64,000 nucleotides of DNA from a virus: IMG/VR virus record IMGVR_UViG_3300042514_000542, positions 60,370 to 124,369 of that record. One strand, written 5' to 3'. The position numbers were made by a program, and so were the translations under genes. This document shows, piece after piece, positions 6,516 through 45,100 of the stretch. Below the pieces are notes generated by a model. The model did no database searches. It worked only from the letters and a program-made list of their open reading frames with translations, and was not told where the DNA came from. Numbering within the stretch: the first letter of the stretch is position 1; every line of letters starts with the position of its first letter.

Positions 6516-6537
6516 ATTATAGTTCGGTTTTAATTAA
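6516..6537 (-). promoter_or_regulatory. cassette motif copy
   Basis: +strand ATTATAGTTCGGTTTTAATTAA. Confidence 0.6.
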
Positions 6538-7187: not shown

Positions 7188-7190
7188 ATA

Positions 7191-8199: not shown

Positions 8200-8205
8200 A
8201 GTTGA

Positions 8206-8227
8206 ATTATAGTTCGGTTTTAATTAA
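8206..8227 (-). promoter_or_regulatory. cassette motif copy
   Basis: +strand ATTATAGTTCGGTTTTAATTAA. Confidence 0.6.
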
Positions 8228-8229
8228 GC

Positions 8230-13032: not shown

Positions 13033-13972
13033 AATTCCATTTATATCCTTTATGTGTTTGTCTTTTCCCTTTACAACAAGCTACGATAGCTGATGGATCA
13101 AATCCAGTCGATTTGATGCTATCCCATGTTTTAATATGGTTATCATTTAAATCCTTTTGTTCAACTCTTATCCTGTTGTTTACGGGTGTGAAATTTATAT
13201 TATTATTCTTAAAGTAGTTTTTGATGCATTTTATAGGAACACCATATTTTTTGTAAAGCCTGTATATTGTATACTCTTCCGTTTTGAAATCTTTAACTAT
13301 ATCTAAATATTTTAAACTATGATCAATTGGTCCATCTTCATCAATTTTAGAATTTTTTAATTGTTTTATCTCCCACTTATGTTTGTATGATTCTACTGGA
13401 CAGTCACCAATATAATTTAAAAAATGTTTAGCAAATATTCGTTTGATATATATTCTGTTATTGGTGAAGTTGATCCATGATTTCCATTCCTGTAATTGCC
13501 CATTTAGAAACTCTAAACTATCTTTATCGAAGGAATCTGTGCATAATTTAATATATCCATGACTCTTATCTAATGAACCATCACCAACATACCATAACAG
13601 AATTATAGTGTTTGTCAACTCTAAATCTTTCGGAACTATTTTAAGTCCTTCTGGATACCACACCATTCTAAGGTTGTAGAATGTTATGCTGCTCTTAGTT
13701 CTTATGCTATAATTTATATATGTCTTCTTTGTTCTCTTATCGTAAATTTCTCTTCTGATCGGACCATCTTTATATCTGGGAGATACCAAGTCTTTAAGTT
13801 GATTCCATACATACTCCACATGATCTAAATTACTACTACCATACATGAAGCAAGAGCTTTTACCCTTTATAGATAAGCACCCATCACCTAATAAGCATCC
13901 TTGAATTACTTCTAATTCGTATTGTGTTAAATTTATTACACTCATACTATTATTTAGTGTAGAGTGTAACAC
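13022..13972 (-). CDS. LAGLIDADG homing endonuclease
   Basis: Two LAGLIDADG-type motifs (LLGDGCL..., LWYVGDGSL); overlaps the Thg1-like gene start by 11 nt. Confidence 0.6.
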   Translation of the reverse strand: MLHSTLNNSMSVINLTQYELEVIQGCLLGDGCLSIKGKSSCFMYGSSNLDHVEYVWNQLKDLVSPRYKDGPIRREIYDKRTKKTYINYSIRTKSSITFYNLRMVWYPEGLKIVPKDLELTNTIILLWYVGDGSLDKSHGYIKLCTDSFDKDSLEFLNGQLQEWKSWINFTNNRIYIKRIFAKHFLNYIGDCPVESYKHKWEIKQLKNSKIDEDGPIDHSLKYLDIVKDFKTEEYTIYRLYKKYGVPIKCIKNYFKNNNINFTPVNNRIRVEQKDLNDNHIKTWDSIKSTGFDPSAIVACCKGKRQTHKGYKWNYEK

Positions 13973-18252: not shown

Positions 18253-19173
18253 TCATAGCTCAATTTTCATGCACACAACTCTCTCATCATGTGGATAGAA
18301 GTATTTGGTAGTCCAATTTTGTTTGGAATTTGTGGTATAAACCTTATCAAAATGCTCAGATACGTTTTTGATGCCATCATAGCAATCAGAGTGTGTGGTG
18401 AATAACATAAGCTTGCCACAATTCTTTTCACGAAGTTTCTTACCAAGGCCAATGAATGTTCCACCCATCGAATTAATATCATCGCAGATAAGTGTAGGAT
18501 GACCACCTAGATCATCAGCACCTACGAAGAACTCCTTAATAGAACCATCCTTGACATCACGAACTTTCTCACAACGAATTAGGTTGAATGTCTTAGCGTG
18601 ATACATGCAAGCAAGGTATTGTGTAATCTTACCTACGCGCTTTCCAGCACCAGCATCAGGACATACGATATTCCATTCCTTTTGGTTGACATCGCTTTGA
18701 ATGATTTGATCAATATATTTCAATTCATCAAGAACAATAACATTGTTAAGCAATGCTGGAGTCACTTCACTATGAGGACAAAGGATAGTAACACTGTTGA
18801 ATCCACAACCATTAATCATATCAGTAAAGACCTTAATGGTTAATGGTTCACCTTCATTACATACGCGGTCTTGACGAGCGGCGGGAAAGTATGGAAGAAT
18901 AAGTCTAATGTCATTAAAACCCATACGACGAGCAGCATCATTTGCCAGAATAATATCAAACAAATCGCCAATCTTATTATATCGTTGAGTGATTACCAGA
19001 GTAGATGCTTCTGGACATGCACATTTGTTAGTAATCTGAAAGTGCGGCTCCCCGCCTTTGAAGTCAAATTTCTTATAGAATACCTCAACACCCTCGAAAG
19101 GTGCGAAGGTTTCATCTAGGTTTAAAACGTATGGTCGTTCTGCTTTCATGTTCCAATGTATATGCTGCTTCAT
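18253..19173 (-). CDS. ribose-phosphate pyrophosphokinase (PRPP synthetase)-like protein; candidate ADPR-pyrophosphate synthetase (Adps) of an NARP1-type pathway
   Basis: 306 aa; LPYFPAARQDR, PDAGAGKR and DDI..MGGT resemble Prs motifs. Confidence 0.55.
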   Translation of the reverse strand: MKQHIHWNMKAERPYVLNLDETFAPFEGVEVFYKKFDFKGGEPHFQITNKCACPEASTLVITQRYNKIGDLFDIILANDAARRMGFNDIRLILPYFPAARQDRVCNEGEPLTIKVFTDMINGCGFNSVTILCPHSEVTPALLNNVIVLDELKYIDQIIQSDVNQKEWNIVCPDAGAGKRVGKITQYLACMYHAKTFNLIRCEKVRDVKDGSIKEFFVGADDLGGHPTLICDDINSMGGTFIGLGKKLREKNCGKLMLFTTHSDCYDGIKNVSEHFDKVYTTNSKQNWTTKYFYPHDERVVCMKIEL

Positions 19174-24008: not shown

Positions 24009-24030
24009 ATTATAGTTCGGTTTTAATTAG
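24009..24030 (-). promoter_or_regulatory. cassette motif copy (read through as C-terminal ..LIKTEL of the upstream gene)
   Basis: +strand ATTATAGTTCGGTTTTAATTAG. Confidence 0.6.
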
Positions 24031-24666
24031 CTTGTTTGGAATTACTTCCGAATGCATCCAGTGTGTATCAGTCGTAACATGATTTGGTCTTACCCATTTC
24101 GCCACATTACTTCCAAAGTTTTCATATGCAAATCCATCGGCATTGCGAACTACGTATCCTTCATGCACCTTACGATCCCTATTCATAAAGTCTTCAATAT
24201 ATACTGAAACATTACCGGGACTTCTTTCATCCCATAGAAAAGGCTTGGCTATAATAGGAACATGTTCAATACCCAACAACTGACAGAACTCTACAGTATC
24301 TTTCCAAGACAAGCAATAGTTAGTTTCATCCCAAATGGAGAAACAGTAGAAGTATGATTTAAGATCATCATAACCAATGGAATGTTTAGCGTAAAGATTC
24401 TCACCACACACTCTCCATCCTTCTGGAATGTCATTCTTAATAGATGCATGAAATTGTTTGATCCATGAACGTGATGGATGATCTTTACTATCCAATGAAC
24501 GAGCATGATAATGATCATTATATAGAGTGGAATTTTCACCATCCATCTTTTCGGTGATAATCATTGACTTACCATTGAAGCATGAAGTATCCTTAAGAAT
24601 TTTATCATCAGAAGTCGCTCCCGGCGACCAGTTAAGGTGCTTTGTTCGTGGATACTTAATTTTCAT
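24010..24666 (-). CDS. RNA ligase family protein (nucleotidyltransferase motif I KxDG)
   Basis: 218 aa; N-terminal KYPRTKHL and MIITEKMDGEN match the RNA_ligase (Rnl2/PF09414-like) family. Confidence 0.5.
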   Translation of the reverse strand: MKIKYPRTKHLNWSPGATSDDKILKDTSCFNGKSMIITEKMDGENSTLYNDHYHARSLDSKDHPSRSWIKQFHASIKNDIPEGWRVCGENLYAKHSIGYDDLKSYFYCFSIWDETNYCLSWKDTVEFCQLLGIEHVPIIAKPFLWDERSPGNVSVYIEDFMNRDRKVHEGYVVRNADGFAYENFGSNVAKWVRPNHVTTDTHWMHSEVIPNKLIKTEL

Positions 24667-25000: not shown

Positions 25001-25029
25001 ATTGTTATTTCGGTTCCGATCCTATTAAA
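25001..25029 (-). promoter_or_regulatory. degenerate cassette motif copy
   Basis: +strand ATTGTTATTTCGGTTCCGATCCTATTAAA; an insertion disrupts the TTAATTAA box. Confidence 0.4.
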
Positions 25030-25834
25030 TTTTACACCATTTCCTGTCCATTTTAGGAACATCAATAGACAACAGTTTATTTCTCAAATAGATATACTTT
25101 CCAGTCTTTAAATTACCACCAAAAGATAGCTTATATACCATATTTGTATTTTTGATTTTTTTAATCGTGGTATCTATATTACAATAACTAGAAAACACGT
25201 TCTTTATAAATTGTAAAATATCACATGTCCCAATAATGGTAATAATTTGATTTCCATGGCTAGAAGCGATACAACCATCTCCATCTATATACCCTATTAT
25301 ATAGGCCAAAGCATGATTAACTGTTGGTATGTTTTCTGGCGGTTTAATCGTCGCCGTCTTATTCTGAGTAATGTTAAATCTATTAACTAATGTATTAACA
25401 ATATCTGGAACCCCGGTGAATTCACATCCGACATATTTTCCACCACCTCTAAAATAAAGTGGGCCATCATATTTAAAGTGTTCTTTTAACAGATTAACTG
25501 TCTTTAAATCTCTAGAGTGTAGCGTTAAACGAACCCTATTATTGGCTTCATCAATACATCCATCTGCTGCTAACAACCCAACCAAATACCAAGTCGTCAG
25601 ATCATCATTATCGAAAGCCTTCTGATCTATATTATATCTTGAGCCTTTACGTTTACCATTTCTTTTACTTTTACGCACACCAATATCTAAAATAGATCTA
25701 CAAGATTTACATTGGGAAGTGTAAAGGTTTTTACTTTTTGATCTTTTATAAAAAGATTCTAATGGTTTAGTTTCTTTACAGGTTGTGCAGGTTTTGTTGT
25801 TAGTCATACTATTATTTAGTGTGATCAACAACAA
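25025..25834 (-). CDS. LAGLIDADG homing endonuclease with N-terminal zinc finger
   Basis: LVGLLAADGCI and IIGYIDGDGCI motifs; N-terminal CTTCK...CKSC. Confidence 0.6.
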   Translation of the reverse strand: MLLITLNNSMTNNKTCTTCKETKPLESFYKRSKSKNLYTSQCKSCRSILDIGVRKSKRNGKRKGSRYNIDQKAFDNDDLTTWYLVGLLAADGCIDEANNRVRLTLHSRDLKTVNLLKEHFKYDGPLYFRGGGKYVGCEFTGVPDIVNTLVNRFNITQNKTATIKPPENIPTVNHALAYIIGYIDGDGCIASSHGNQIITIIGTCDILQFIKNVFSSYCNIDTTIKKIKNTNMVYKLSFGGNLKTGKYIYLRNKLLSIDVPKMDRKWCKI

Positions 25835-28654: not shown

Positions 28655-29890
28655 TTATTTTACTTCTAATAGATATTTGATTCTGATTTGATTTCCATTA
28701 TAGACAATCAATTCGTCATTTAGGAAAGATGTGTTTTGTGGCAATGCCCAGCAGGAATCATATCCAGATGGTAATTGACTGAAAGTATGTTTTGTATAGT
28801 AAGGATTACCCATCACGAAGTCACAGATAAATAACCACCCACTATCACCCTTACCTTGACCCCATCTACCTAGAGTATACCCTAAACTTTTTGATGCTGT
28901 TTCAGATCCGTAAGTCCCGTTTCCAAAGGCTTTTCCGGCTATAGCGACAGTAGATGGTGGACTAGGTTGTAGACCACTTTTTAAAATACTGAGAATATTT
29001 GCGGAAGAACTTCCATGCCACACTTCCTTAACATTCACCGGATTCTTCACAAAGTTAGCATTGTAATCCACAATGTCAACCTCATAAATGTTGATAATTT
29101 TAACATGTTGATAATGATGCATTGGTTTATTCGTGCTATTATACCAATCTTGAATTTTCTTAATAACCTTGGGATCAGTCACCAGAGACATATTGAGATT
29201 GAATACCTTTTCAGTAGAAGGTTTAGTGGCATCAACAGGTGCTTTAAGTGCCATTTCAACACTGTTATCAAGAGCGTCCAATACATCAGATTCCTTCTTA
29301 ACTACATCAACATTTGGAAAGATATTCTCATATAATAATCCACCACCCTTTGGTCTTGGGATGATCTTAAGATAATCATCAATTTTTTGATTGAAATCAT
29401 CCTGACCATTCTTCTTAATGTTTTTGAAGAAGTAATCGAGTAGAATACGTGCCTCTGAGATACCCTCTTTGGTTACGATACCCAAGGGGGTTTGGAATAC
29501 ACCGTTATTGAAACTAATACTAGTTGAGTTGGTGATCTTATGGACATTGCTATCTGCAAGTCTCTTAACAAGAGTCTTAAGACTACTATCCGATAACTTA
29601 ATTTGTGATAAGGCGATATCCGCCAATGACGTATTAGCAATAACCTTATTGGTTACAGCACCTTCCATTAGGACTTTAGCATGAGTATAACCCTTACGTT
29701 CCTTCTCACGGATTTTCTTATCAAAAAATGACTTACCAACACATCCGAAATCCTTTGATTGTGGGTTCTTTGCCCCAACTACACCAAATTCCGCCATAAC
29801 TCTTCCGTCGTCATGTAATTCGGCTTGCCAAAACTTATATGAGTTAGCTTTTAAGTCTGAGAAAACGAGCTTTACTTTTTCTTTTATCAT
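28655..29890 (-). CDS. poly(ADP-ribose) polymerase-like protein (WGR domain + PARP catalytic domain)
   Basis: N-terminal WGR-like YKFWQAEL...FGVVG. C-terminal VWHGSSSANILSILKSGL...TYGSE...IVYNGNQIRIKYLLEVK aligns with the eukaryotic PARP1 catalytic core (LWHGS...IVYDIAQVNLKYLLKLKF) recalled from memory. Confidence 0.65.
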   Translation of the reverse strand: MIKEKVKLVFSDLKANSYKFWQAELHDDGRVMAEFGVVGAKNPQSKDFGCVGKSFFDKKIREKERKGYTHAKVLMEGAVTNKVIANTSLADIALSQIKLSDSSLKTLVKRLADSNVHKITNSTSISFNNGVFQTPLGIVTKEGISEARILLDYFFKNIKKNGQDDFNQKIDDYLKIIPRPKGGGLLYENIFPNVDVVKKESDVLDALDNSVEMALKAPVDATKPSTEKVFNLNMSLVTDPKVIKKIQDWYNSTNKPMHHYQHVKIINIYEVDIVDYNANFVKNPVNVKEVWHGSSSANILSILKSGLQPSPPSTVAIAGKAFGNGTYGSETASKSLGYTLGRWGQGKGDSGWLFICDFVMGNPYYTKHTFSQLPSGYDSCWALPQNTSFLNDELIVYNGNQIRIKYLLEVK

Positions 29891-30171
29891 TAGTATGATT
29901 GTATTTCGGTTTTAATTATTCTTTCTATAACCCACTGTTGATATTGATATCCATCTTTTTGCGGATCATACAAATCATCATTATCAATACAATTCCATGT
30001 GTCTCCGACACGAATAGGAGTAAAACTTAAAAGATCGTTATATGTGTAAGTTAGACCATCACATAAGTTATTTGCGCATGAATACCTATCGGAAGATTCA
30101 TATATACGAATATTCTTTGGAATGTCCGATAACACTATACCGTATACCTTTTCGTGTTCATCCCATGTCAT
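29890..30171 (-). CDS. hypothetical protein
   Basis: 93-aa ORF. Confidence 0.45.
   Translation of the reverse strand: MTWDEHEKVYGIVLSDIPKNIRIYESSDRYSCANNLCDGLTYTYNDLLSFTPIRVGDTWNCIDNDDLYDPQKDGYQYQQWVIERIIKTEIQSY
29898..29919 (-). promoter_or_regulatory. cassette motif copy
   Basis: +strand ATTGTATTTCGGTTTTAATTAT. Confidence 0.6.
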
Positions 30172-31250
30172 AAGTCTAATAGTTGTTCCATTGCCACTTT
30201 CACAAGTTTATCTTCAACCACTCTATCATCAAGTAGACAGAATGCCAATGATGTTTGCCAAGCCTTGAATCTACCAGTGATATATAGTGCCTGTTCCTTA
30301 CGGGTTTCCAAAAGCTTAATATGATTCTTAAGTTCGTATTCTATAATATTGAGAGTATGAACATACTTACCATAAGATTCTGTGACCTTACCGATAAAGT
30401 CCTTACACTTCTCCGCAATTTCGAAATCAAGTGTCGTTTCGATGTAATTATAGAATTCCTTCTCTTCTACAAACTTAGGTGAAGCCAAGAACACATCAAG
30501 AACTTGCTTGATGCCTTTGATACCAGTAGCAAGCTTGTGGAGTTCACAGTATTCATCTGCCTTGATCTTCTTTAATGTTTGACCATCAGGTGAATATAAC
30601 ACTACGCCTTCTTTACCAGTCCATGCTGCAACATCAAGGATACATTCTTCGACAGAATTATATTCATACTTTTCAGGACGATTAACTCCAAACATTTTAG
30701 ATGAACCATCCAATGCGGCTTGATTTGCATATCTCATTGTGCGGTGTCCCACAATACCAACCAAAGTTAAAGTAGGTTCATCATGTTCACGAAGAACAAT
30801 AATGTTTGAAGGAGTGGTCCATTCAAATAACAATGATGATATCCCAGCATCCAACCAATTATTATCAAATGCCTTTGGATACTTCTTTATAAGAAGATCA
30901 ATCTCATGACCATTAGCCATTTGACGAGCATCAACAGTTCCACGGGTTCTTATGATAAGTTCCCCTTTATACTTTGAAACGATTAATAAACTTCCGTCTA
31001 ATTTATGTCGCGCTTCGATCTTCCATGAGTTGTCCCAAGGTTGAAAATCAGGACGCTCACCAAAGTTAGTGAACTTGGCAAAACCTTGTGATACTACAAA
31101 GTTATCAGACTTACGAACAATACAAGAACGGAATCGTGCATTGTCATCAAACCACTTCGTAGCCATATCGACAGGGTTGATCAACCAACATTCATCTCCT
31201 GCTATGGTGCAGTCTTTGAATTTGAATTGTTCTGGATCGGGTAACTTCAT
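30168..31250 (-). CDS. rnlA: RNA ligase 1 (T4 RnlA-like)
   Basis: 360 aa; motif I HKLDGSL (T4 Rnl1 KEDGSL); size matches Rnl1. Confidence 0.55.
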   Translation of the reverse strand: MKLPDPEQFKFKDCTIAGDECWLINPVDMATKWFDDNARFRSCIVRKSDNFVVSQGFAKFTNFGERPDFQPWDNSWKIEARHKLDGSLLIVSKYKGELIIRTRGTVDARQMANGHEIDLLIKKYPKAFDNNWLDAGISSLLFEWTTPSNIIVLREHDEPTLTLVGIVGHRTMRYANQAALDGSSKMFGVNRPEKYEYNSVEECILDVAAWTGKEGVVLYSPDGQTLKKIKADEYCELHKLATGIKGIKQVLDVFLASPKFVEEKEFYNYIETTLDFEIAEKCKDFIGKVTESYGKYVHTLNIIEYELKNHIKLLETRKEQALYITGRFKAWQTSLAFCLLDDRVVEDKLVKVAMEQLLDL

Positions 31251-32892: not shown

Positions 32893-33306
32893 TTATCTTA
32901 GCTTAAGAGACTGTTTAATATTATTCTCATGTCTTTCAAGAATTTCTTCTCCCACACCATGAACGTTCTTACCACCATGACGATTTTCAACCACTAGGAA
33001 TATAACATCCGCATCAAAGTTTTTAGCCTCTTTTTCATAATAGGTAAAATCATTAACTTTGGTATTAGTATTATTCACGATGATATCAGTTACAGTGGAT
33101 TCCTTAAGAGCTTCTTTGAAATTATACATACAAACACTATGGGCATGTGCAAGTTTATTAACATCCCAATTATAATTTCCATCCTTATCAGTAAAGAAAT
33201 CATCAGCACTAACAGAAACCCATCCAATATTTCGAGTAAGTTTTGTGGTTACAAAATCCTTACCAGCACCGGAACATCCTCTCAAAATCCATACAGTTTT
33301 TTTCAT
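32893..33306 (-). CDS. pnk: polynucleotide kinase-like P-loop kinase (T4 Pnk kinase-domain-like)
   Basis: MKKTVWILRGCSGAGKD resembles the T4 Pnk N-terminus MKKIILTIGCPGSGKS; 137 aa, no phosphatase domain. Confidence 0.5.
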   Translation of the reverse strand: MKKTVWILRGCSGAGKDFVTTKLTRNIGWVSVSADDFFTDKDGNYNWDVNKLAHAHSVCMYNFKEALKESTVTDIIVNNTNTKVNDFTYYEKEAKNFDADVIFLVVENRHGGKNVHGVGEEILERHENNIKQSLKLR

Positions 33307-34491: not shown

Positions 34492-34513
34492 ATTATATTT
34501 CGGTTTTAATTAA
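34492..34513 (-). promoter_or_regulatory. cassette motif copy
   Basis: +strand ATTATATTTCGGTTTTAATTAA. Confidence 0.6.
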
Positions 34514-35157
34514 TTCTTTGTTGTTAAAGGTGTCAGTCCACTCAATCCTGTTACAGTGTCTATTAAAAACACTTCACCATTTCTGGGATTTTTATATCTC
34601 TCGAAATCCTTTACAGACCATCCCAAGAGATACATTAAATAAAGCTTGTTAAACTCTCCGTGAGCTACCACAATATTGTGTTCATACTTACTAGTAGCTA
34701 GAATATGTTGATGGAACAATACTGCGCGTTGGTAACAGTCGGCAAACGACTCACCACCAGAAGGACGGTAATAGAAATTGAAATGTGATTCTGTTTTATT
34801 TCCCATTTCAACAATATCCCTAAGATTACCCCATTCTCTTTCACGTATCAGGGGCAATTCTTCAAATTTATTAATTTGATAGTTTTGATAACCCGTGATC
34901 CTACCATGTAGGATATTTGCTGTTTGGTATGCCCTCTTATAAGAACTATGATATAAATTAAAATTACATCTGGGTTCTCTAGGTGGATTGTCTGATTTAG
35001 CGTCATGTTCAACCAAACTCATAATATCATCAGCCGCATTAATAGCATCATCCTTTCCTCGTTCAGCCAATTCAATATCACAATCTAGATTTCTAAAATA
35101 TTCAGATTTATCGATATTCCCCTTCGACAATCCGTGTCTAACTAAGTAAATTTTCAT
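34510..35157 (-). CDS. histidine phosphatase superfamily protein (phosphoglycerate-mutase-like)
   Basis: N-terminal LVRHGLSKGN (RHG catalytic motif); 215 aa. Confidence 0.55.
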   Translation of the reverse strand: MKIYLVRHGLSKGNIDKSEYFRNLDCDIELAERGKDDAINAADDIMSLVEHDAKSDNPPREPRCNFNLYHSSYKRAYQTANILHGRITGYQNYQINKFEELPLIREREWGNLRDIVEMGNKTESHFNFYYRPSGGESFADCYQRAVLFHQHILATSKYEHNIVVAHGEFNKLYLMYLLGWSVKDFERYKNPRNGEVFLIDTVTGLSGLTPLTTKN

Positions 35158-35160
35158 ATT

Positions 35161-35616
35161 CTATTCCTTAAAGTATGCATCAGTGATCACTTCATTTTTA
35201 TCATAATCAATCACTAACATAGGTGATCCATCGTATCTCACATCATCCCTCAATTGAAGACCCCACTTATAAGTCATACAAAGTGTCATGATATCTATTG
35301 CAAAGAACTTACCAATCAAATCTTTTAGATCAACTTCAGGAAGATCCCACTCGAAACTATGCATGTTGAAGAATGGTTGATCCCTACCATCGAGAGGATC
35401 GTTATCATCAAATATATTAGGATATTCCTCTAACCACACATATGTAGAGGAAGAATTTAATTCCGTTTTTCTAACAGTATATTGTTGACCCGGAACTAGT
35501 TTCTTAGCATCTTCGTTAACGTTAATAAACCAACTTCTAGTAGGCTCTATAAATGTTATCTTCTGCCCTACTTTTGGTAGACCATGTAATATTTTTCTGT
35601 CATTAAACATGCTCAT
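35161..35616 (-). CDS. hypothetical protein
   Basis: 151-aa ORF. Confidence 0.5.
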   Translation of the reverse strand: MSMFNDRKILHGLPKVGQKITFIEPTRSWFINVNEDAKKLVPGQQYTVRKTELNSSSTYVWLEEYPNIFDDNDPLDGRDQPFFNMHSFEWDLPEVDLKDLIGKFFAIDIMTLCMTYKWGLQLRDDVRYDGSPMLVIDYDKNEVITDAYFKE

Positions 35617-36029
35617 AATAGTGGTAGATGGTCTGTTAGACCATCGAATTTGCTCGATTCATGTGGCCCGATTGCAATTGCCGTCTTAGTCTTAACTCCA
35701 TTAAATTCAGTCGCACCGTTGTCGATAATCATATGGGATATTAACCCATTGTCAAGAGCCTTTTGGTGAAGTTCGTCAAGTTCTTGTTCACTGTTGACAT
35801 AGACACAGATTTTACGAAATGAGTTTTTCAACCAATGGTCTATTTCATCGACATGTTTAGATTCTAAGTCTTGATAAAAGTAGTCATCCCTATACACATG
35901 TTGATAATCGTAGTCAACCCGACCACCTTTTGTTAAGAATGACATTGATGCATGACTCGATTGGGCGCACATCTTCCCCTTCCTCATGTTGAGGTCTTTT
36001 CGGATTACTATAACCTGTTTAGTATTCAT
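35613..36029 (-). CDS. peptidyl-tRNA hydrolase PTH2-like
   Basis: RKGKMCAQSSHAS and AIAIGPHE match PTH2 motifs (GKGKIAAQCSHA, AIGPGP). Confidence 0.6.
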   Translation of the reverse strand: MNTKQVIVIRKDLNMRKGKMCAQSSHASMSFLTKGGRVDYDYQHVYRDDYFYQDLESKHVDEIDHWLKNSFRKICVYVNSEQELDELHQKALDNGLISHMIIDNGATEFNGVKTKTAIAIGPHESSKFDGLTDHLPLL

Positions 36030-36370
36030 ATTTCGTTATTAGTGAACCAATTTTCCAGTGTTAGAAATGATATATTTTCTAATGATATATCACAACTAAA
36101 CTCTTTAGTGAGAAAAGTAAAATAAGGACTTATGTTGTGAGTTTTCACATACTCGTCATATTTTACACGAAACCCATTAAAATCATCGTTCAAAATGGTT
36201 GGTTGGTTATCTTTAAACCATGTATTATATTCATCATATGATTTCTTAGAATCTTCATATAATTGCAAAAAATCATACTCTGCCTTTTCCAAGGATTCAT
36301 AGGTAAATGGATATGTGTTCACACCACAATACTCTTCATCGCTATAATACTCTGTTAATACTAATTTCAT
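36026..36370 (-). CDS. hypothetical protein
   Basis: 114-aa ORF. Confidence 0.5.
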   Translation of the reverse strand: MKLVLTEYYSDEEYCGVNTYPFTYESLEKAEYDFLQLYEDSKKSYDEYNTWFKDNQPTILNDDFNGFRVKYDEYVKTHNISPYFTFLTKEFSCDISLENISFLTLENWFTNNEI

Positions 36371-37050
36371 TACTTACAAGTGTAGATTCTCGACGGAACA
36401 TGTCCCCCTTGAAATGTCCCCCAAGGGACTGTCATTGCATCGCCTGTTACGTCCGAAAACTTAGCCATTTTAGGATACCACATCTTATCAGTAATTTTAT
36501 CAACCTTGTCCTTATGGACAAAGATGTGATATCCACCACGGGTTTCCGTTACATCACAGTAGCCACCGCAAAGTTCAATACATGTTTGAAGAGTTTCATC
36601 GTTTTTATCGTCAACATCAAACATGATATACTTTCGTTCACCTACGGACTTTTGGATTTCACTCATTACCTCTTGATGTGGATTAGAATTCTTCCCACCA
36701 CATTCTAGAACAGTAGCAAGCTTGCCAATACTACGCACAGTAGCCTTCCACAGATCCCTTGGACTGATACTGATGTAACATGCCAAAGACTCTTGTGGAA
36801 CGTCTCTACCATCCAATTTATAAGCACCAACCCTGCATTGCATTTGATCGATCTTATCGAAGATATACTCCTTCTTGGAAGTCTTTCTACATAGTTGCCC
36901 TTTGTCGCTTTTAATCCACGGCATTTCGGGGCAATACTTCTTCCTACAAAATAGAGTAAGATAGTATTGTTCGGTTTCCTTACAATCGGGTAGCCATTCA
37001 ATAAACTCTCTCAACTTTTGCTCGTCTTTGATGATTTCGTAATGTTTCAT
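36370..37050 (-). CDS. hypothetical protein, possible AEP-type primase-polymerase fold
   Basis: 226 aa; MFDVDDKND (DxD) and TRGGYHIFV (sGxGxHhh-like) resemble AEP motifs I/II; weak. Confidence 0.35.
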   Translation of the reverse strand: MKHYEIIKDEQKLREFIEWLPDCKETEQYYLTLFCRKKYCPEMPWIKSDKGQLCRKTSKKEYIFDKIDQMQCRVGAYKLDGRDVPQESLACYISISPRDLWKATVRSIGKLATVLECGGKNSNPHQEVMSEIQKSVGERKYIMFDVDDKNDETLQTCIELCGGYCDVTETRGGYHIFVHKDKVDKITDKMWYPKMAKFSDVTGDAMTVPWGTFQGGHVPSRIYTCK

Positions 37051-37056: not shown

Positions 37057-37078
37057 ATTATACTTCGGTTTTAATTAA
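37057..37078 (-). promoter_or_regulatory. cassette motif copy
   Basis: +strand ATTATACTTCGGTTTTAATTAA. Confidence 0.6.
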
Positions 37079-38490
37079 CTCTCTTCCTCCATATCGGCTT
37101 CGTTATTATCCCTCGCAGCGGATTCCTTAATAACAAATTTAGGTGATTTGAATTTTAATGCGGTTCTCTTGGGATTGTTTTCAATTCTAAGAACAATACC
37201 CTCATTAACAACACCAGTGGTGCAAAGTTCACAATCCTTATCAAGATGAGCCTCCTTAAGTTTTGCCAAGAAATTATCATTCCAATCTTTATCCATAGGG
37301 ATATCATCAGCAAACATATCTCTAGCCAATCCAGTATAATATACTGGAACTGTTTTCAATCCAAGATCATGACAAAATTCCTCAATCTCATACCATTCCA
37401 ATTCGTAGATTTTACCTTCAGGTAGGTTACAAGTAATTCTATATACTCGGAATTCGCATTCACCTTTAGCTACACCGTAATCATAACCCTTTTGGATGGT
37501 CGCACCACCGGAGGTATATCCCACAATTTCACCATACACAGTATAACGTTCTGGAATTTCACCCTCAAGTTCTGCTGCAATAACACCCCATACATCATCA
37601 GTATAGTTCCCATCGCGTCTATTCTTAAGAACACTACGACTAGAGTATACGAACTTATATTCCGTGTCTGGAATATTAAGTCCAAGATTGGGTACATAAT
37701 ATCCGATCTTATTAAGAATAGGTCTAGTGATGCTGAATGGTTTCTTACAAAGAATGTTCGCAAAGATCGCAGACGTTCCATGCATCTTAGAAGATACCGT
37801 AATAAAATCATCAGGATTAACTAAGAAGATATTCCTACCAAGATGTTCAGTCTTATAATGAAATGCGAATTGACCATCAACAAGTTGAGATTTGATACCT
37901 TCGGCCTTTCTATTGAACCATGCATTAATAGGCTTATATAGTTTAACACGAATAGGTCTTGGCATGACACCAATGGTTTTCTCAACCCATTTTGGAACAC
38001 GGCTCTTTTTCTCATTAGCTTCACCGCTATTTCTAGCATCACCCTTAACGTATTTCTTGGCTAGAACATCTTCACCAACAGTATCAAAGATATCACCAAG
38101 TTTAAAGGTGTCTTCATCTACTTCATAATATTTTGCTAGTTCGGATACTTTGAATAGGAATCCTTGGGATGGAATGGATCTTAGGCCAATAGCCTTAACA
38201 CGACCATGCTTACCGAAAAATCCCTTGGTTTTTCCATCAGCATTAAGTTCGGCGTTATCTCTAAGATTTGCCCAAGATAGGAACTTAAGAGAAATGGCAC
38301 ATTCTACTGGAAAGTAGACCACAAGATCACCTTCGTTATAAGAACCTTTTCCAATGATAATAGTATTACCAAAGACTTCCACCAAAGAAAGTCTATCTGC
38401 GTTGGGGTGATCCTTAATAACAGGAACCTTTACGACAGTTGGTAGGTAGTTGGGATCTGCACCCTCGCTAATAGTTAATTTTGCTTTCAT
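37075..38490 (-). CDS. rnlB: RNA ligase 2-like enzyme fused to an N-terminal tRNA-binding (Myf/EMAP-II/Trbp111-type) OB domain
   Basis: N-terminus HPNADRLSLVEVFGNTIIIG resembles tRNA-binding domains; KMHGTSAIF matches T4 Rnl2 motif I KIHGTN; 471 aa. Confidence 0.55.
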   Translation of the reverse strand: MKAKLTISEGADPNYLPTVVKVPVIKDHPNADRLSLVEVFGNTIIIGKGSYNEGDLVVYFPVECAISLKFLSWANLRDNAELNADGKTKGFFGKHGRVKAIGLRSIPSQGFLFKVSELAKYYEVDEDTFKLGDIFDTVGEDVLAKKYVKGDARNSGEANEKKSRVPKWVEKTIGVMPRPIRVKLYKPINAWFNRKAEGIKSQLVDGQFAFHYKTEHLGRNIFLVNPDDFITVSSKMHGTSAIFANILCKKPFSITRPILNKIGYYVPNLGLNIPDTEYKFVYSSRSVLKNRRDGNYTDDVWGVIAAELEGEIPERYTVYGEIVGYTSGGATIQKGYDYGVAKGECEFRVYRITCNLPEGKIYELEWYEIEEFCHDLGLKTVPVYYTGLARDMFADDIPMDKDWNDNFLAKLKEAHLDKDCELCTTGVVNEGIVLRIENNPKRTALKFKSPKFVIKESAARDNNEADMEEES

Positions 38491-38496: not shown

Positions 38497-38518
38497 ATTA
38501 TACTTCGGTTTTAATTAA
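38497..38518 (-). promoter_or_regulatory. cassette motif copy (translated as C-terminal ..LIKTEV of the upstream gene)
   Basis: +strand ATTATACTTCGGTTTTAATTAA. Confidence 0.6.
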
Positions 38519-38800
38519 GTCCTTCTTCAGTTCACCAAATGTTTTCGATCTATTATGGTAGCCATATTCAATAATTTCTGATAGATATTTATCATCTTCA
38601 AATCGGGCAACTGGTGAACCAGAAAACATCCAAGATACACTACCACACCATTCAAATTCTGGAAATCCATTATGTCTACCATATTGAACCATAACACAAC
38701 CACAGGGGTCGTTATCAAGACATTCTCTCATATCAACATTTCTATCATCGGGTTGTGATTCAATCCAATCGTGAAATTCTTTAATTTTTACTCTTTTCAT
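38498..38800 (-). CDS. hypothetical protein
   Basis: 100 aa; stop is the TAA of the TATAAT-like box. Confidence 0.5.
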   Translation of the reverse strand: MKRVKIKEFHDWIESQPDDRNVDMRECLDNDPCGCVMVQYGRHNGFPEFEWCGSVSWMFSGSPVARFEDDKYLSEIIEYGYHNRSKTFGELKKDLIKTEV

Positions 38801-39045: not shown

Positions 39046-39897
39046 TTATTCAAAATCGCGGATACTATGGATAAAGGGAAATCTGGGAATTTGCTTATCA
39101 GGTGTCTTATTAAAGAAAACCACAGTAGCCAATTTACCAATGTAGTTATCCTTGTTATCTAACAGTTCTTTAAGGTATGCTCTATCACCTTTAATATTGG
39201 AATTGAAACTATGTCCAAGTTCGTTTTCAAAAACCATAGCACCTGCAAGCCCCGCACGATTTCCAACACCTTCCACAATATCAAGAATCTTATACTCTTC
39301 ATCTTGGAATTCTTTCCTCTTAAGAAGATTAGCAGAACGCTTGAATTCATACGGTGTATCGAGTCGAACCATTTGACCCTCATAACCTCTATCAAGATAT
39401 GCACCATAAACTTTATCTAAGGTTTCAAGATCATCAATTCTTTGTGTAGTTACTCTAACAATACAATCGGGAAGATTAAAATTTTCTTTGATTGTTTTGA
39501 TCCAATTTTTACGTTGTCTAAAAGTGTGTTTATCACTGGCAGTATCATACCACCAGAATTGAACCATTTCGGCACTTTCCACCAAATCATCTTTGGTCGG
39601 TTTTTGCTTCTTAATCAAAGATGACATTTTGTTGAAGTCATGCTTCAAATCGTGGTTGTATAATTCACCATCAAGGATCAAATCTGGATACTTTTCAAAT
39701 ACGGGTTCCAGTGCTTCAAGAATATGTGGAATAGTTGCCCAAGGTTTACCATTACGAGACTTTGCCCCATTACGAGTAATCACCGCTCGACAATTATGAA
39801 CTAATATATCATTAGCGTAGAAGTTATGATTATCTTCTACTTCTATATCATATCGATCATAAAAATCTTCTAATTTTTCTATCTTAACAATTTTCAT
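39046..39897 (-). CDS. ATP-dependent DNA ligase C-terminal fragment, preceded by a split-intein C-half (IntC, ~35 aa)
   Basis: Starts MKIVKIEKLEDFYDRYDIEVEDNHNFYANDILVHN|C, closely resembling Npu DnaE IntC (MIKIATRKYLGKQNVYDIGVERDHNFALKNGFIASN|C). Ligase motifs follow: ILDGELY, GYEGQMVR, LLKRK. Confidence 0.7.
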   Translation of the reverse strand: MKIVKIEKLEDFYDRYDIEVEDNHNFYANDILVHNCRAVITRNGAKSRNGKPWATIPHILEALEPVFEKYPDLILDGELYNHDLKHDFNKMSSLIKKQKPTKDDLVESAEMVQFWWYDTASDKHTFRQRKNWIKTIKENFNLPDCIVRVTTQRIDDLETLDKVYGAYLDRGYEGQMVRLDTPYEFKRSANLLKRKEFQDEEYKILDIVEGVGNRAGLAGAMVFENELGHSFNSNIKGDRAYLKELLDNKDNYIGKLATVVFFNKTPDKQIPRFPFIHSIRDFE

Positions 39898-40777
39898 ATT
39901 TATTTAAAATCTCCTCAACTCGTTCTTTATTAATCTCATCATCCCAAATAGTCTCAAAGTTATAATTTAAATTGATTATGTGGTCTTCTTTTATTTTATC
40001 TCTTTGCCATATTTGTTCCGCTGTTAACTTTCCATGGATTGTATTGAACATATCATGTGGTTTATAATATTTTGGATTTGCGTGCCAAAAGCACCCGTTA
40101 ACCTCAATCACCAATTTTTTATTAGGTATGTATATATCAACAATTGGGCAAAACCTTCTCTCCATAATTGGATTGTAAGATTTAAAGTATTCATTTGTTT
40201 CGGTTTCATATTCTACTCCCAAATCGTCTAAAATCTGCAATGTATCTCTATGCGGTTTAGATAATCTAAATGTCTTTCGAAAAAATCCCGGAATCTCCGA
40301 TGGATGCTCGACACCATGATTAGTTATCCAGTAATCTTTAATTTTTTGTTTAATTACAGGAGATTTAAAATTATTATCTACTCCATATGTGTCTAAACAT
40401 TTTAATCTCTTTTGTTCCTTTACTATATTTGACTGGGATATATTTGTTATATTCTCACCATATTTCTCTCTTATAGTTTTAATTTTACTGGCACTAACAC
40501 TTGGAAGGAAACATGTATCGGAAATGTTTCTAGTTTCAACTCCTGTTTCATTTCGTAATCTATCTATAATAACACCAGCACCACCTATAGATATTCCAAT
40601 TTCTTGGAAATACTTGACTATAGAGTTTGCACTCATATGTTCATTAAGATATAAATCAATTAATAAATCATTTGTTATTATTTCTCTAATATATTTTCTT
40701 CTATCGTGATTATTTGGGTGTTTCGACAATACATCTCTATCCAATATCAAGCTTTCAAATTTTTCCTTTTCAGTCAT
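39884..40777 (-). CDS. free-standing Vsr-like (PD-(D/E)XK) homing endonuclease between the intein halves
   Basis: 297 aa; LVIEVNGCFWHANP matches the Vsr signature FxDGCFWHxH; separated by stop codons from the IntN ORF and overlaps the IntC ORF by 14 nt. Confidence 0.6.
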   Translation of the reverse strand: MTEKEKFESLILDRDVLSKHPNNHDRRKYIREIITNDLLIDLYLNEHMSANSIVKYFQEIGISIGGAGVIIDRLRNETGVETRNISDTCFLPSVSASKIKTIREKYGENITNISQSNIVKEQKRLKCLDTYGVDNNFKSPVIKQKIKDYWITNHGVEHPSEIPGFFRKTFRLSKPHRDTLQILDDLGVEYETETNEYFKSYNPIMERRFCPIVDIYIPNKKLVIEVNGCFWHANPKYYKPHDMFNTIHGKLTAEQIWQRDKIKEDHIINLNYNFETIWDDEINKERVEEILNKYENC

Positions 40778-40816
40778 CTATATTATTTAGTCAAAACTGG
40801 ATGGTTTCAACCAAAA

Positions 40817-41506
40817 TTAGATGGAATTTTTTAAAGTTTCTGTTCCATCCAATTCATCGACTCTTCGCCAACATTTAAGATTATCTACCCAAACTCTATG
40901 ATTACCAGTAAGAACTAACTCTTTACCACTGTCTGTTGTAATTTTATACCAATTAGATGTTTTCTCTTTTATGTCTACTCCGTTCAACATAACACATTTT
41001 ATAGACTTGTATTCATTCTCCCCTGTAGTCTCGTTATAAGTTTTAATTTTTGGTAAATCTGTTGTCATAGAATCTAGAAATAATTCATACAACTCATGTA
41101 TCTTCATATCTTCATTTTCTAATGATATCATACTATATCCATGCAAACATCCATCAAGCTTGGGTTGACTATATACAGGAAATTTTACCTTATCTTTACG
41201 GTCTTCCCATTTCTTAGCAAGCATGGGTTCTACGTATTCAGAGGTGTCGATCTTTGAGATATCAACATGATATCCAGTGTCCTTCTTCTTAGTCCAAGAT
41301 GCTTGTGCTTCGAATAACGCCTGTTCTTCTGGTGTTCTTTGATTTGCACGATTTTCGTTTGTAACTAAACAGACAGTCCATTCCGTAGTCTGTAACTTGC
41401 CATTAAGTTGTCCATGAATAGTTCTATACGAATCTTTTTCGATTTCTACAGTCCATGTTTGAATCGCTCCCGTATTTGTTCGGGAATATAATGTGGGTAG
41501 TTGCAT
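40817..41506 (-). CDS. ATP-dependent DNA ligase N-terminal fragment (through motif I KLDG) fused to a split-intein N-half (IntN, ~120 aa)
   Basis: KVKFPVYSQPKLDG|CLHGYSM... cf. T4 gp30 KFPAFAQLKADGARC. Intein block B ELVLTGNHRVWVDN; ends ...LKNSI then stop. Confidence 0.7.
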   Translation of the reverse strand: MQLPTLYSRTNTGAIQTWTVEIEKDSYRTIHGQLNGKLQTTEWTVCLVTNENRANQRTPEEQALFEAQASWTKKKDTGYHVDISKIDTSEYVEPMLAKKWEDRKDKVKFPVYSQPKLDGCLHGYSMISLENEDMKIHELYELFLDSMTTDLPKIKTYNETTGENEYKSIKCVMLNGVDIKEKTSNWYKITTDSGKELVLTGNHRVWVDNLKCWRRVDELDGTETLKNSI

Positions 41507-41957: not shown

Positions 41958-42175
41958 CCATCATAAACTCCAAGCTGTCTCCAACCTCTTCTTCCCCAAA
42001 CAAAATCACAACCATCCTTGTGTCCACTCTCGTCTGTAATATCAACTAACCCTTTACAATTTTCACAACATTTAAAATTGTCCAAATCAGAATTTTTTAA
42101 CTTAGTCCCATCAAACGGACAATACCAATATCCATCTTGATCATAATTGGCTAGACATTTGGGACATCTTATCAT
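41954..42175 (-). CDS. zinc-ribbon protein
   Basis: 73 aa with CPKC...CP and CCENCK Cys pairs. Confidence 0.45.
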   Translation of the reverse strand: MIRCPKCLANYDQDGYWYCPFDGTKLKNSDLDNFKCCENCKGLVDITDESGHKDGCDFVWGRRGWRQLGVYDG

Positions 42176-42717
42176 AATGGAATGTATACTGAACTTTTTG
42201 GCTTCTCTGTAGGCTTCATTTCCCCATTATCTATATCATAGATGATAAATTCAACAGGGAATTTTGATTCAATATCCTTAAGGATAGCTTCTACAATGAT
42301 CCACGAACCACCAGCACGAACAGATGCCATACCGTATGGAATACCAATAGTGAATGGAGATTCTAGTTTACATAGTCGATCACATGCTCTATAGATAGCA
42401 TCATATAGATAGTCATACCTACAGTTCCTATTTAAAGGATGACCATCATTACCGATACCAACTTGGCCATATAGATTAATGACCAACCTATTATCAGGTA
42501 GAATTGCGACTGAACTTCTACCGAGTTTATCGCTCTTTTGAGCTATCATACTACTACCCATGAGATTATCATGATAATCTAAGTCTGCTTGATAAACCTC
42601 TGGCCATTTTTCCTTAAGGTAGTATGCAATACCACTACCCATAACACATTCGATATTGGCACAATGCATTGCAACATCCCAATCCCCGTCAAGCAAATTT
42701 CCTTTTTTATATTTCAT
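42172..42717 (-). CDS. macro-domain protein (ADP-ribose binding/hydrolase)
   Basis: KKGNLLDGDWDVAMHCANIECVMGSGIAYYL fits the macro-domain N-terminal signature. Confidence 0.55.
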   Translation of the reverse strand: MKYKKGNLLDGDWDVAMHCANIECVMGSGIAYYLKEKWPEVYQADLDYHDNLMGSSMIAQKSDKLGRSSVAILPDNRLVINLYGQVGIGNDGHPLNRNCRYDYLYDAIYRACDRLCKLESPFTIGIPYGMASVRAGGSWIIVEAILKDIESKFPVEFIIYDIDNGEMKPTEKPKSSVYIPL

Positions 42718-44086: not shown

Positions 44087-45100
44087 ATGGTGTGTGATAG
44101 GTTAAATATATTTATGCGAAAGTCAAAAATTAGTTTAGCAGATGAAGAAGCGATTGTCAATCAGTATTTAAAGGAAAAAAATGTAGAAAAATTAAGATCT
44201 AAATATAAAACATCATTTAAAGATATTAAAAATATTCTAATTAAAAATAATATATATTCAGGTAGAAGATCAACTTCATTGAATTTAAAATATTTTGAAA
44301 ATATAGATAGTAATGAAAAAGCTTATTGGTTAGGATTTATTTCGGCTGATGGATCTTTGTCTAAAAATGGGTATAAATTATCCTTTGGTGTTAAGGATTC
44401 TGATATATTAGAAAAATTTAAAAGAGCCATATCATCTGGAAGCCCTGTATCAGATTTCAACGTATATGATGAGAGGACAGATAAAACTTACAATAGATAT
44501 AGTCTTCAGATATGTTCTAAAGAATTTTGCCAATATATAAGAAATCATGGAGTTGATGAAAACAAGTCAAAAGTATTCAAATTCCCAAAGATTGATGAGA
44601 AATATTACTCCCATTTTATTAGAGGGTTATATGACGGTGATGGTAGTATATGTATAGTCAAATCCAAGGTTATAGAGAATATCAACTTTAGGGCAAATAT
44701 TATAAGTTCTTTGGAGTGTGTTAACTACATTAAAGTTTATTTAGAAAGCATCAATATCTCATCTAATAAAATATTTTCCAAACACGACCAAAATATTCAC
44801 TATATTACATTTGGAAAGGACGTTATTAAATTTTTAAATTGGATTTATAAAGACTCATCCGAAGAAACTAGGTTGGATAGAAAATACAATAAATTTATCG
44901 ATAATCTACATGATTATAATACCCAACATAAGATTTTTCAAATTAAAAATCATCAAACCGGAGTTACACATAAAGTTAAGAATTTGATTAAATTCTGTAA
45001 AGATAATAATTTAAACGATAATTACTTGAGGTATAATATGACTAATGGAAAAATTCCAACAAAAGGTAAGCACTTAGGATGGGAATTATTACCCAATTAA
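44087..45100 (+). CDS. LAGLIDADG homing endonuclease
   Basis: LGFISADGS and GLYDGDGS motifs; + strand; no cassette motif upstream. Confidence 0.6.
   Translation: MVCDRLNIFMRKSKISLADEEAIVNQYLKEKNVEKLRSKYKTSFKDIKNILIKNNIYSGRRSTSLNLKYFENIDSNEKAYWLGFISADGSLSKNGYKLSFGVKDSDILEKFKRAISSGSPVSDFNVYDERTDKTYNRYSLQICSKEFCQYIRNHGVDENKSKVFKFPKIDEKYYSHFIRGLYDGDGSICIVKSKVIENINFRANIISSLECVNYIKVYLESINISSNKIFSKHDQNIHYITFGKDVIKFLNWIYKDSSEETRLDRKYNKFIDNLHDYNTQHKIFQIKNHQTGVTHKVKNLIKFCKDNNLNDNYLRYNMTNGKIPTKGKHLGWELLPN

Follow-up and report, generated by a model that had tools for sequence, protein, structure and literature searches.

The 471-aa protein encoded at 37075..38490 on the minus strand of the window, a 64,000-nucleotide stretch of viral DNA, is probably a nick-sealing RNA ligase of the Rnl5 type, in which the N-terminal OB fold would act as a co-opted catalytic module and not as a tRNA-targeting device. 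The ORF starts with ATG, lies 7 nt from the upstream ORF, and constitutes a complete gene for an ATP-dependent RNA ligase of Rnl5 architecture. Pfam detects PF21189 ("PHA02142 OB-fold domain") at aa 17-113 (E 1e-8, or 5e-10 when the isolated domain is searched) and PF09414 (RNA_ligase) at aa 230-447 (E 1e-10). Both matches are far above chance level, and PHROG 968 "RNA ligase" matches the full length of the protein (E 8e-59). The position of the ORF and its two-domain anatomy, with an HPNADRL motif at aa 28-34 and KMHGTS at aa 235-240, agree with the initial annotation.

Rnl5 enzymes are defined by an N-terminal OB domain and a C-terminal nucleotidyltransferase (NTase) domain without a further C-terminal domain, as in DraRnl and NgrRnl (PMC1807946). 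The protein is a new member of this already described architecture. [quoted passage not shown] The same combination is also present in Pfam (PF21189 plus PF09414), in PHROG 968 and in about 380 cultured phage genomes. The suggestion that such a fusion is not a described architecture holds for the T4 enzymes, which do not have this N-terminal domain, but the layout itself is the published hallmark of Rnl5.

Four regions can be distinguished in the protein, and the domain and motif coordinates that follow are all on the minus strand. The N-terminal OB domain (aa 1-146; 38053..38490) is of the Rnl5 type, belongs to the tRNA_bind fold group and carries the Rnl5-specific C-terminal extension. It is followed by a clade-specific inter-domain segment (aa 147-205; 37876..38052), which no Pfam model covers in a search of the protein. 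This segment consists of a disordered linker (aa 151-161, AF2 pLDDT below 50) and a strongly basic helical hairpin (aa 163-194, pI 11.6), with AF2 helices at 167-174 and 178-192; about 29 of its residues are absent from the short-form relatives P0108-P0120. The NTase (adenylyltransferase) domain spans aa 206-449 (37144..37875). Beyond motif V (K446 and K448), AF2 secondary structure and charge delineate one helix and an acidic tail only (aa 450-471, pI 4.3; 37078..37143), and the protein ends 23 aa later, at aa 471. The NTase domain therefore has no further appendage, and a C-terminal domain is absent. The acidic tail is found in 229 of 256 relatives.

The NTase domain contains a full set of nucleotidyltransferase motifs. 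Residue conservation was counted in 35 relatives, and the K.HG and acidic-tail counts refer to 256 full-length relatives. Motif I, read from the translation, is SSKMHGTS (aa 233-240; 37771..37794), with KMHGTS at aa 235-240 (37771..37788), and K235 is the predicted AMP-accepting lysine. K235, H237 and G238 are invariant (35/35), and K.HG is present in all 256 full-length relatives. The counterpart in DraRnl comprises T163, K165, H167 and G168, so that a KxHG motif I is common to both proteins (PMC1807946). YSSRS (aa 282-286; 37633..37647), with invariant S284 and R285, is assigned to motif Ia from its position. YGEIVGY (aa 319-325; 37516..37536), with invariant E321 and G324, aligns with the motif III region of T4 Rnl2, and FRVYRI (aa 347-352; 37435..37452), in which R351 is invariant, is taken as the motif IIIa region from its alignment with FYVFDI of T4 Rnl2. 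Motif IV is NEGIVLR (aa 429-435; 37186..37206; E430 and G431 invariant), where DraRnl has EGVVV (PMC1807946), and motif V is ALKFKS (aa 444-449; 37144..37161; K446 and K448 invariant). All 12 of these catalytic-motif residues are thus conserved in 35 of 35 relatives.

By sequence, the NTase domain is nearer to Rnl2 than to canonical Rnl5. The family profile matches the NTase of T4 Rnl2 in the PDB (E 1.7e-6), and when the NTase domain alone was searched, six of ten clade members matched the Rnl2 model TIGR02307 and none of the ten matched the DraRnl model TIGR02306. No detectable sequence similarity was found between this domain and the NTase domains of the canonical Rnl5 enzymes K8 and NgrRnl. 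A family profile was needed for these PDB comparisons, as a single-sequence search missed NgrRnl and gave only marginal matches to Rnl2. The initial description of the protein as "Rnl2-type" is therefore apt for the NTase sequence and fails as a family label, because the all-helical C-terminal signature domain of Rnl2, present in T4 Rnl2 (PDB 1S68/2HVQ) and kinetoplastid REL1, is missing here. The Rnl2 profile alignments end at about position 220 of 326, where the phage protein ends, and the protein falls far under the TIGR02307 cutoff of 197 bits. Moreover, Rnl2 enzymes have no N-terminal OB domain.

The OB domain carries two conserved motifs. HPNADRL (aa 28-34; 38389..38409), identified in the translation, is a signature of tRNA_bind-type OB domains and occurs in canonical phage Rnl5 as well. 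H28, A31 and L34 are invariant in the clade, D32 is present in 32 of 35 members, and the counterpart in the phage K8 ligase is HPNADSL. The second, LRSIPSQG (aa 103-110; 38161..38184), aligns with LRGQLSQG of NgrRnl and LRKELSQG of K8, and its residues L103, R104, S108 and G110 are invariant. Alignment bridges through K8 also locate the positions at which NgrRnl contacts ATP and metal. NgrRnl D53, which makes a water-mediated contact with the non-catalytic metal (PMC7261155), corresponds through K8 D56 to E63 (codon at 38302..38304), a position occupied by Glu in 34 and Asp in one of the 35 clade members. NgrRnl K121, which contacts the ATP gamma-phosphate (PMC7261155), corresponds through K8 K124 and a shared KYVK to K146 (codon at 38053..38055), which is invariant (35/35). 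NgrRnl R4 maps to the invariant N14 and not to a basic residue. As judged from these alignments, two of the three ATP- or metal-contacting positions of NgrRnl (R4, D53 and K121) are kept, as E63 and K146.

The initial annotation had likened the N-terminal domain to tRNA-binding domains, and this resemblance is real. The domain falls into the tRNA_bind fold group, so it is not a generic OB barrel devoid of tRNA-binding homology, and it is 30-33% identical to MetRS-C domains. It shares the OB fold variant of the tRNA_bind domains (PF01588: Trbp111-like, CsaA, MetRS C-terminal, PheRS-beta B2 and EMAPII/p43/Arc1p-C), but differs from them in a C-terminal extension that is common only to Rnl5 N-domains and in being joined to a ligase, with its active site packed next to the domain. 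Accordingly, 114 residues align to NgrRnl versus 80-93 to tRNA-binding domains, and Pfam puts the domain into the separate family PF21189. The Pfam tRNA_bind model PF01588 does not match the query domain even at E<=10, and matches 9 of 35 relatives weakly (best E 5.8e-4).

The biochemistry of the homologues bears on what this domain does. Step-1 lysine adenylylation by NgrRnl and DraRnl depends on the OB module, which touches a metal as well as the gamma-phosphate of ATP; deleting the module abolishes adenylylation while step 3 is kept (PMC7261155, PMC4408790, PMC1807946). Both enzymes seal generic nicked duplexes and do not need tRNA (PMC7261155, PMC4408790, PMC1807946), and Rnl5 enzymes act on 3'-OH/5'-PO4 nicks in duplexes with an RNA 3'-OH strand (PMC4408790, PMC1807946). 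By homology, Lys235 of motif I would attack ATP to form ligase-AMP while the OB domain would cover the nucleotide site in the manner of NgrRnl, and E63, K146 and possibly N14 would orient the pyrophosphate leaving group and the second metal. AMP would then pass to the 5'-phosphate at the nick, and attack by the 3'-OH of the RNA strand would seal it. The tRNA-binding-like fold would be an inherited family module co-opted for catalysis.

An alternative proposal makes the OB domain a functional tRNA-recognition module, which would steer sealing to broken tRNAs, for example at stem nicks, any role in adenylylation being additional. We consider this unlikely. Retention and conservation of HPNADRL and LRxxxSQG speak for it, as do the weak tRNA_bind matches in the relatives, and the physiological substrates of Rnl5 have been termed "uncharted" (PMC5397189). 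The two retained tRNA_bind-type motifs and the identity to MetRS-C make an additional RNA-binding role of the domain possible. However, the OB domain of NgrRnl and DraRnl is dispensable for recognition and sealing of an adenylylated nick (PMC7261155, PMC4408790, PMC1807946), and the conserved OB residues are those common to canonical Rnl5, the ATP- and metal-contact positions included; the query itself lacks a tRNA_bind match. T4 Rnl1 owes its tRNA specificity to a helical domain at its C-terminus (Wang et al. 2007, cited in PMC4408790) and not to an OB fold, and the 471-aa protein is not a homologue of Rnl1. Since the Rnl5 layout is known, the OB domain promotes adenylylation in the homologues, and E63 and K146 are kept, neither a novel architecture nor a tRNA-targeting module finds support.

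The preferred reading, a divergent Rnl5-type ligase with a catalytic OB module, is consistent with the family comparisons. Domain order is the same in NgrRnl (PDB 5COT/5COU), DraRnl (DR_B0094, TIGR02306), Aeromonas phage 44RR2.8t and Pseudomonas phage K8 gp089, and the N-domains are homologous, including the Rnl5-specific extension with K146 (K121) and the acidic E63 (D53). The family profile matches NgrRnl aa 7-106 (E 4e-7), and the N-domains of the query and the K8 ligase share 34% identity; the K8 ligase itself passes the DraRnl cutoff (166.7 versus 151 bits). TIGR02306 matches the N-terminal part of the query (E 4.6e-10) and scores 38.9 bits there, whereas the equivalog cutoff for DraRnl is 151.15, which is a database threshold and not the published definition of the Rnl5 family; at the level of sequence, a score below it indicates a divergent subfamily and not a DraRnl ortholog. 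Compared with canonical Rnl5, the phage protein is about 130 aa longer (471 versus 340-380 aa). It adds the basic helical hairpin, an insert after motif I (approximately aa 250-275), a conserved cysteine trio (C373, C420 and C423) and the acidic C-terminal tail, and has an invariant Asn where NgrRnl has R4. The extra residues, this Asn, the low TIGR02306 score and the lack of NTase similarity to K8 and NgrRnl weigh against the preferred reading. We also considered that a tRNA-binding domain had been fused to a ligase independently, by convergence, and rejected this because the N-domain has its Rnl5-specific extension, and the protein its KYVK junction, in common with the canonical Rnl5 of phage K8.

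Several genes around the ligase have RNA-related predicted products; the first six named here are on the minus strand. A T4 Rnl1-type RNA ligase of 360 aa (30168..31250; PF09511 E 5e-12; T4 Rnl1 in the PDB, E 2e-4) lies 6 kb off and is also close to the ligase homologue in the related loci L003 and L004. A small AAA_33 kinase-like protein (32893..33306), also encoded in L004, matches PF13671 (E 2e-6, barely over the cutoff), gives no sequence match in the PDB, and is a candidate 5'-OH polynucleotide kinase. A histidine-phosphatase-superfamily protein (34510..35157; PF00300 E 6e-21) adjoins or is near the ligase homologue in L003, L004 and L007, and a PTH2-type peptidyl-tRNA hydrolase (35613..36029; PF01981 E 2e-30) is close to it in L004 and L007. 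Further away are a third RNA ligase, a stand-alone NTase of 218 aa (24010..24666; PF09414 E 2e-32), and a Thg1-like protein (12262..13032; PF04446 E 3e-30; B. thuringiensis TLP 4kgk, E 9e-40). The third ligase is 28% identical to the 471-aa protein over 78 aa only, and L004 has an equivalent 210-aa gene. Thg1-like proteins (TLP) form a family of 3'-5' polymerases with a function in the repair of tRNA 5' ends (PMC4820378). A YqeY gene is found in the same neighbourhood. The product of 42172..42717, assigned to PHROG 335 "phosphatase", was initially taken as a HAD-type Pnkp-like phosphatase; this candidate was dropped, as its PDB matches indicate a macrodomain.

The Rnl1-type ligase, PTH2, His_Phos_1 and AAA_33 kinase genes recur beside homologues of 44-86% identity, and from this we infer an association of the Rnl1-type ligase, kinase, phosphatase and PTH2 genes with the ligase gene. 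T4 Rnl1 and Pnkp form a phage tRNA-repair pathway against the PrrC anticodon nuclease. The setting here is perhaps analogous, with a ligase of the Rnl1 type, a kinase-like protein and a number of phosphoesterases likewise encoded close to the gene; T4 pairs Rnl1 with Rnl2, compared with the three ligases of this phage. The tRNA-related neighbours (PTH2, YqeY, Thg1-like protein and Rnl1-type ligase), partly kept in relatives, would also suit an OB domain that recognises tRNA. Against that reading, the window already has a separate gene for an Rnl1-type ligase, the kind responsible for tRNA repair in T4, and contains no tRNA or tmRNA genes; with no Rfam family reaching its gathering score either, no RNA substrate is co-encoded. 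A more elaborate proposal, which we regard as quite unlikely, makes the long-form clade a distinct lineage whose Rnl2-like NTase, tRNA-binding OB domain and basic hairpin target nick sealing to damaged tRNAs within a conserved tRNA-repair island directed against tRNA-cleaving defences of the host. The members of that island would be the Rnl1-type ligase, the stand-alone ligase, the Thg1-like polymerase, PTH2, the kinase and the phosphoesterases.

Other genes nearby raise the question of a DNA substrate. The RNA ligase gene is some 0.5 kb away from that of the ATP-dependent DNA ligase of the phage and near a DnaB-like ATPase gene, and the homologue in the Omegavirus Halley sits amid primase/helicase and DnaQ genes. 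DraRnl requires RNA only at the 3'-OH side of the nick, and its deletion slows genome reassembly after irradiation; a part in DNA repair has been raised for Rnl5 and Rnl2 ligases (PMC5397189). The enzyme could accordingly act mainly on duplex DNA nicks with ribonucleotides on the 3'-OH side, left by primers or misincorporated rNMPs, as an accessory of replication or repair. This appears very unlikely, given that the genes most steadily linked in relatives are RNA- or tRNA-related (Rnl1-type ligase, PTH2, kinase and phosphatases) and not replication genes, and that the phage already has a dedicated DNA ligase. Returning to an Rnl5-type RNA ligase, its role in the phage may, more tentatively, be to seal breaks in base-paired RNA once the ends have been healed. 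Similarly, the gene context hints that the enzyme could work alongside the two other RNA ligases within an RNA/tRNA-repair set that counters RNA-cleaving defences of the host.

The long-form phage clade to which the protein belongs comprises at least 548 clusters at 50% identity (E<=1e-30). We found no characterised member in the searchable literature and no paper in a search for "PHA02142". Megablast found no match to the locus among cultured phages, so the genome is without a close relative in culture. In L007 the ligase gene is interrupted; a group I intron was considered, and no Rfam intron match was found. A homologue in mycobacteriophage Faith1 is annotated "RNA ligase" and has a polynucleotide kinase 4 kb off.

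In sum, the architecture dates back to the DraRnl work, and Pfam, PHROGs and phage annotations already list it. Some interest remains in a very large phage-borne subclade that combines an Rnl2-like NTase with a basic insert and an acidic tail, and in a ligase gene embedded in a set that resembles an unusually complete RNA/tRNA-repair kit. What Rnl5-type ligases repair in vivo could be approached in a cultured relative, such as mycobacteriophage Faith1 (gp88) or Synechococcus phage B3 (gp24).

The RNA ligase ORF (37075..38490, minus strand) begins with ATG, encodes 471 aa, and lies amid a long run of minus-strand genes. Its translation carries HPNADRL at residues 28 to 34 and KMHGTS at residues 235 to 240. 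Pfam assigned the N-terminal part to PF21189, the PHA02142 OB-fold domain (aa 17-113, E = 1e-8), and the C-terminal part to PF09414, RNA_ligase (aa 230-447, E = 1e-10), and PHROG 968 (RNA ligase) covers the protein end to end (E = 8e-59). The ORF, its coordinates, and the KMHGTS motif are as described in the initial annotation; with these matches far beyond chance, the two-domain ligase is a real observation. A word-indexed search retrieved 836 homologs. Almost all of them share the two Pfam domains and measure 430-470 aa, and many were found on contigs of roughly 200 kb. When representatives clustered at 50% identity were scanned exhaustively with HMMER, 2,892 proteins passed E ≤ 1e-3, of which 548 also passed E ≤ 1e-30. 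Full-length homologs are encoded in 381-383 cultured-phage records, mostly actinophages, where they are annotated as RNA ligase, and the best cultured-phage match is to Synechococcus phages B3 and B23 (38% identity). Residues invariant in a 35-sequence alignment include K235, H237, and G238 (motif I), S284-R285 (Ia), E321 and G324 (III), R351, E430-G431 (IV), and K446 and K448 (V), and K.HG is kept in all 256 full-length relatives. The protein is thus predicted from its sequence to be a functional, conserved enzyme.

The combination of an OB domain with a ligase had been regarded as undescribed for the T4 enzymes. These do lack an OB domain, but the architecture is known from the Rnl5 family, defined by NgrRnl of Naegleria gruberi and DraRnl of Deinococcus radiodurans. 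In 2007, Raymond and Shuman reported that the N-domain of DraRnl, a putative OB fold, is similar to domain B2 of PheRS-beta, and they aligned DraRnl with a homolog from Aeromonas phage 44RR2.8t (PMC1807946). Rnl5 ligases were later stated to occur in bacteria, bacterial viruses, archaea, and eukarya (PMC5397189, PMC7261155), so the architecture has already been described.

The long-form phage clade to which the window ligase belongs departs from canonical Rnl5 proteins, being about 130 residues longer, and the window ligase scores 38.9 bits against the DraRnl equivalog (TIGR02306), whose cutoff is 151. BLASTP, a clade HMM with all filters off, and a PDB profile search detected no similarity of its nucleotidyltransferase (NTase) domain to that of NgrRnl or of the Pseudomonas phage K8 ligase (gp089). 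In contrast, the clade NTase domain matches T4 Rnl2 (E = 1.7e-6), and when NTase-only sequences were searched, 6 of 10 clade members matched the Rnl2 model and none the DraRnl model. The label Rnl2-type therefore suits the sequence of the catalytic domain but not family membership, which is ruled out because the signature C-terminal domain of Rnl2 is absent. The extra residues include an insert after motif I, a linker predicted to be disordered (aa 151-161), and a helical hairpin at aa 163-194 that is strongly basic (pI 11.6) and missing from short-form relatives. Also among them are an acidic C-terminal tail, RDxxExxxEEE (37078..37143, minus strand), kept in 229 of 256 relatives, and three near-invariant cysteines (C373 in 35/35; the pair C420-x-x-C423 in 32/35 and 34/35). 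The canonical Rnl5 of phage K8 has neither the tail nor the cysteines. The window ligase is a divergent Rnl5-architecture protein with an Rnl2-like catalytic domain, and our literature search found no paper characterising a long-form member.

The likeness of the N-domain to Trbp111, EMAPII, and the MetRS C-terminus is genuine, and the domain did not prove to be a generic OB fold. The resemblance is weak at the sequence level: the Pfam tRNA_bind model gave no match to the query N-domain at a cutoff as loose as E ≤ 10, and only weak matches to 9 of 35 relatives. NgrRnl and DraRnl that lack the OB domain lose ligase adenylylation and with it overall nick sealing, while phosphodiester formation at a pre-adenylylated nick is retained; crystals of the NgrRnl-ATP-Mn2 complex show R4 and K121 of the OB domain touching the gamma-phosphate and D53 reaching the second metal via water; and the substrates are generic nicked duplexes with an RNA 3'-OH strand, with no tRNA involved (PMC7261155, PMC4408790, PMC1807946). 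These residues were carried over to the window ligase through alignments of the K8 ligase, which clears the DraRnl equivalog cutoff (166.7 versus 151 bits), aligns with NgrRnl at E = 3e-58, and shares 34% identity with the window ligase in the N-domain. D53 corresponds to K8 D56 and window E63 (Glu in 34/35 clade members), K121 to K8 K124 and window K146 (Lys in 35/35), and R4 to K8 R7 and window N14, an invariant Asn in the clade. The two domains are predicted to pack against each other just as those of NgrRnl do. The characterised role, the residue mapping, and the modelled packing therefore favour, by homology, the known catalytic role for the OB module. The proposal that it directs sealing to tRNAs is unsupported, since the OB domain of NgrRnl and DraRnl serves adenylylation and generic nicks are sealed without tRNA; of the initial interpretation, the domain identities stand, whereas the novelty of the architecture and the tRNA-targeting mechanism do not.

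Interrupted ligase genes were also observed. The gene for the ATP-dependent DNA ligase is broken up (39046..41506, minus strand): ORF 40817..41506 ends in KLDG|CLHG, the N-extein up to and including motif I joined to the start of an intein, and ORF 39046..39897 opens with the C-terminal end of an intein (VHN|C), after which come DNA_ligase_A_M and an OB domain. Between them lies a free-standing endonuclease-like ORF (39884..40777; DUF7487 and a weak Vsr match), and the arrangement resembles a split intein accompanied by a homing endonuclease. A relative, locus L007, has an intact DNA ligase (367 aa); there it is the RNA ligase gene (6001-8256; P0063, 86% identity) that is interrupted. A homing-endonuclease ORF of the GIY-YIG/NUMOD1 type splits it after motif Ia, at about aa 290, into ORFs of 290 and 194 aa; Rfam detected no group I intron there. 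Database entries P0100, P0104, P0106, P0107, and P0109 look like similar RNA ligase halves. A faintly matching LAGLIDADG-like gene (44087..45100), the sole sizeable plus-strand gene in the minus-strand run, coincides with a GC dip (0.30) and a sign change in GC skew and is probably a recently inserted homing endonuclease. Another LAGLIDADG ORF lies at 25025..25834.

Other window genes include a eukaryote-like PARP of 411 aa (28655..29890, minus strand; WGR, PARP regulatory, and catalytic domains) and a macrodomain protein (42172..42717, minus strand; PDB 5e3b, E = 3e-3), which, together with NADAR and NUDIX genes located nearby in relative L004, suggest a theme of ADP-ribosylation and de-ADP-ribosylation. 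NAD+ salvage genes at 15425..16924 and 18253..19173 (both minus strand) encode a nicotinamide phosphoribosyltransferase (PHROG 448, E = 1e-176) and a PRPP-synthetase-like protein. The ORFs directly flanking the ligase, 36370..37050 (226 aa) and 38498..38800 (100 aa), both on the minus strand, match nothing in Pfam or PHROG and are conserved in position in three relatives (L001, L002, and L007); in the 226-aa protein, the strings DVDD and GGYHIFVH may correspond to primase-polymerase motifs. A 552-aa protein (9639..11297, minus strand) matches PHROG 850 (RNA-binding protein) and Pfam DUF7788.

The window is part of a myovirus of about 200 kb, with tail sheath, tape-measure protein, and RIIA/RIIB, and the longest contig with the ligase protein spans 206,590 bp. 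The window is free of tRNA genes, and no Rfam family reached its gathering score there. Neighbours of the ligase include a PTH2 peptidyl-tRNA hydrolase, YqeY, a T4 Rnl1-type ligase of 360 aa (30168..31250, minus strand; PF09511), and a stand-alone 218-aa PF09414 NTase (24010..24666, minus strand; E = 2e-32); the three RNA ligases lie within 15 kb, and L004 has all three as well. Also among the neighbours are a histidine phosphatase, a small AAA_33 kinase-like protein, two metallophosphoesterases, and a Thg1-like protein (12262..13032, minus strand; PF04446, E = 3e-30; closely related to Bacillus thuringiensis TLP 4kgk, E = 9e-40). The Thg1-like family consists of 3'-5' polymerases acting in the repair of tRNA 5' ends (PMC4820378). 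The Thg1-like gene is directly adjoined by a LAGLIDADG endonuclease gene (13022..13972). Rnl1-type ligase, PTH2, His_Phos_1, and AAA_33 genes recur in the vicinity of ligase homologs of 44-86% identity, and in mycobacteriophage Faith1 a polynucleotide kinase lies 4 kb from the homolog; a NAMPT-type gene adjoins that kinase. The neighbours and their recurrence support an RNA- or tRNA-repair setting, which would be analogous to that of T4 Rnl1, Rnl2, and Pnkp. DNA repair at nicks with 3'-ribonucleotides, suggested for DraRnl (PMC5397189), is a rather improbable role for the window ligase. The gene context is, as such, no demonstration of tRNA recognition by the OB domain, and the separate Rnl1-type ligase is a mild argument for assigning anticodon-loop repair to an enzyme other than the window ligase. 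The interest of this protein lies in an uncharacterised subclade and its repair-gene neighbourhood rather than in the architecture.
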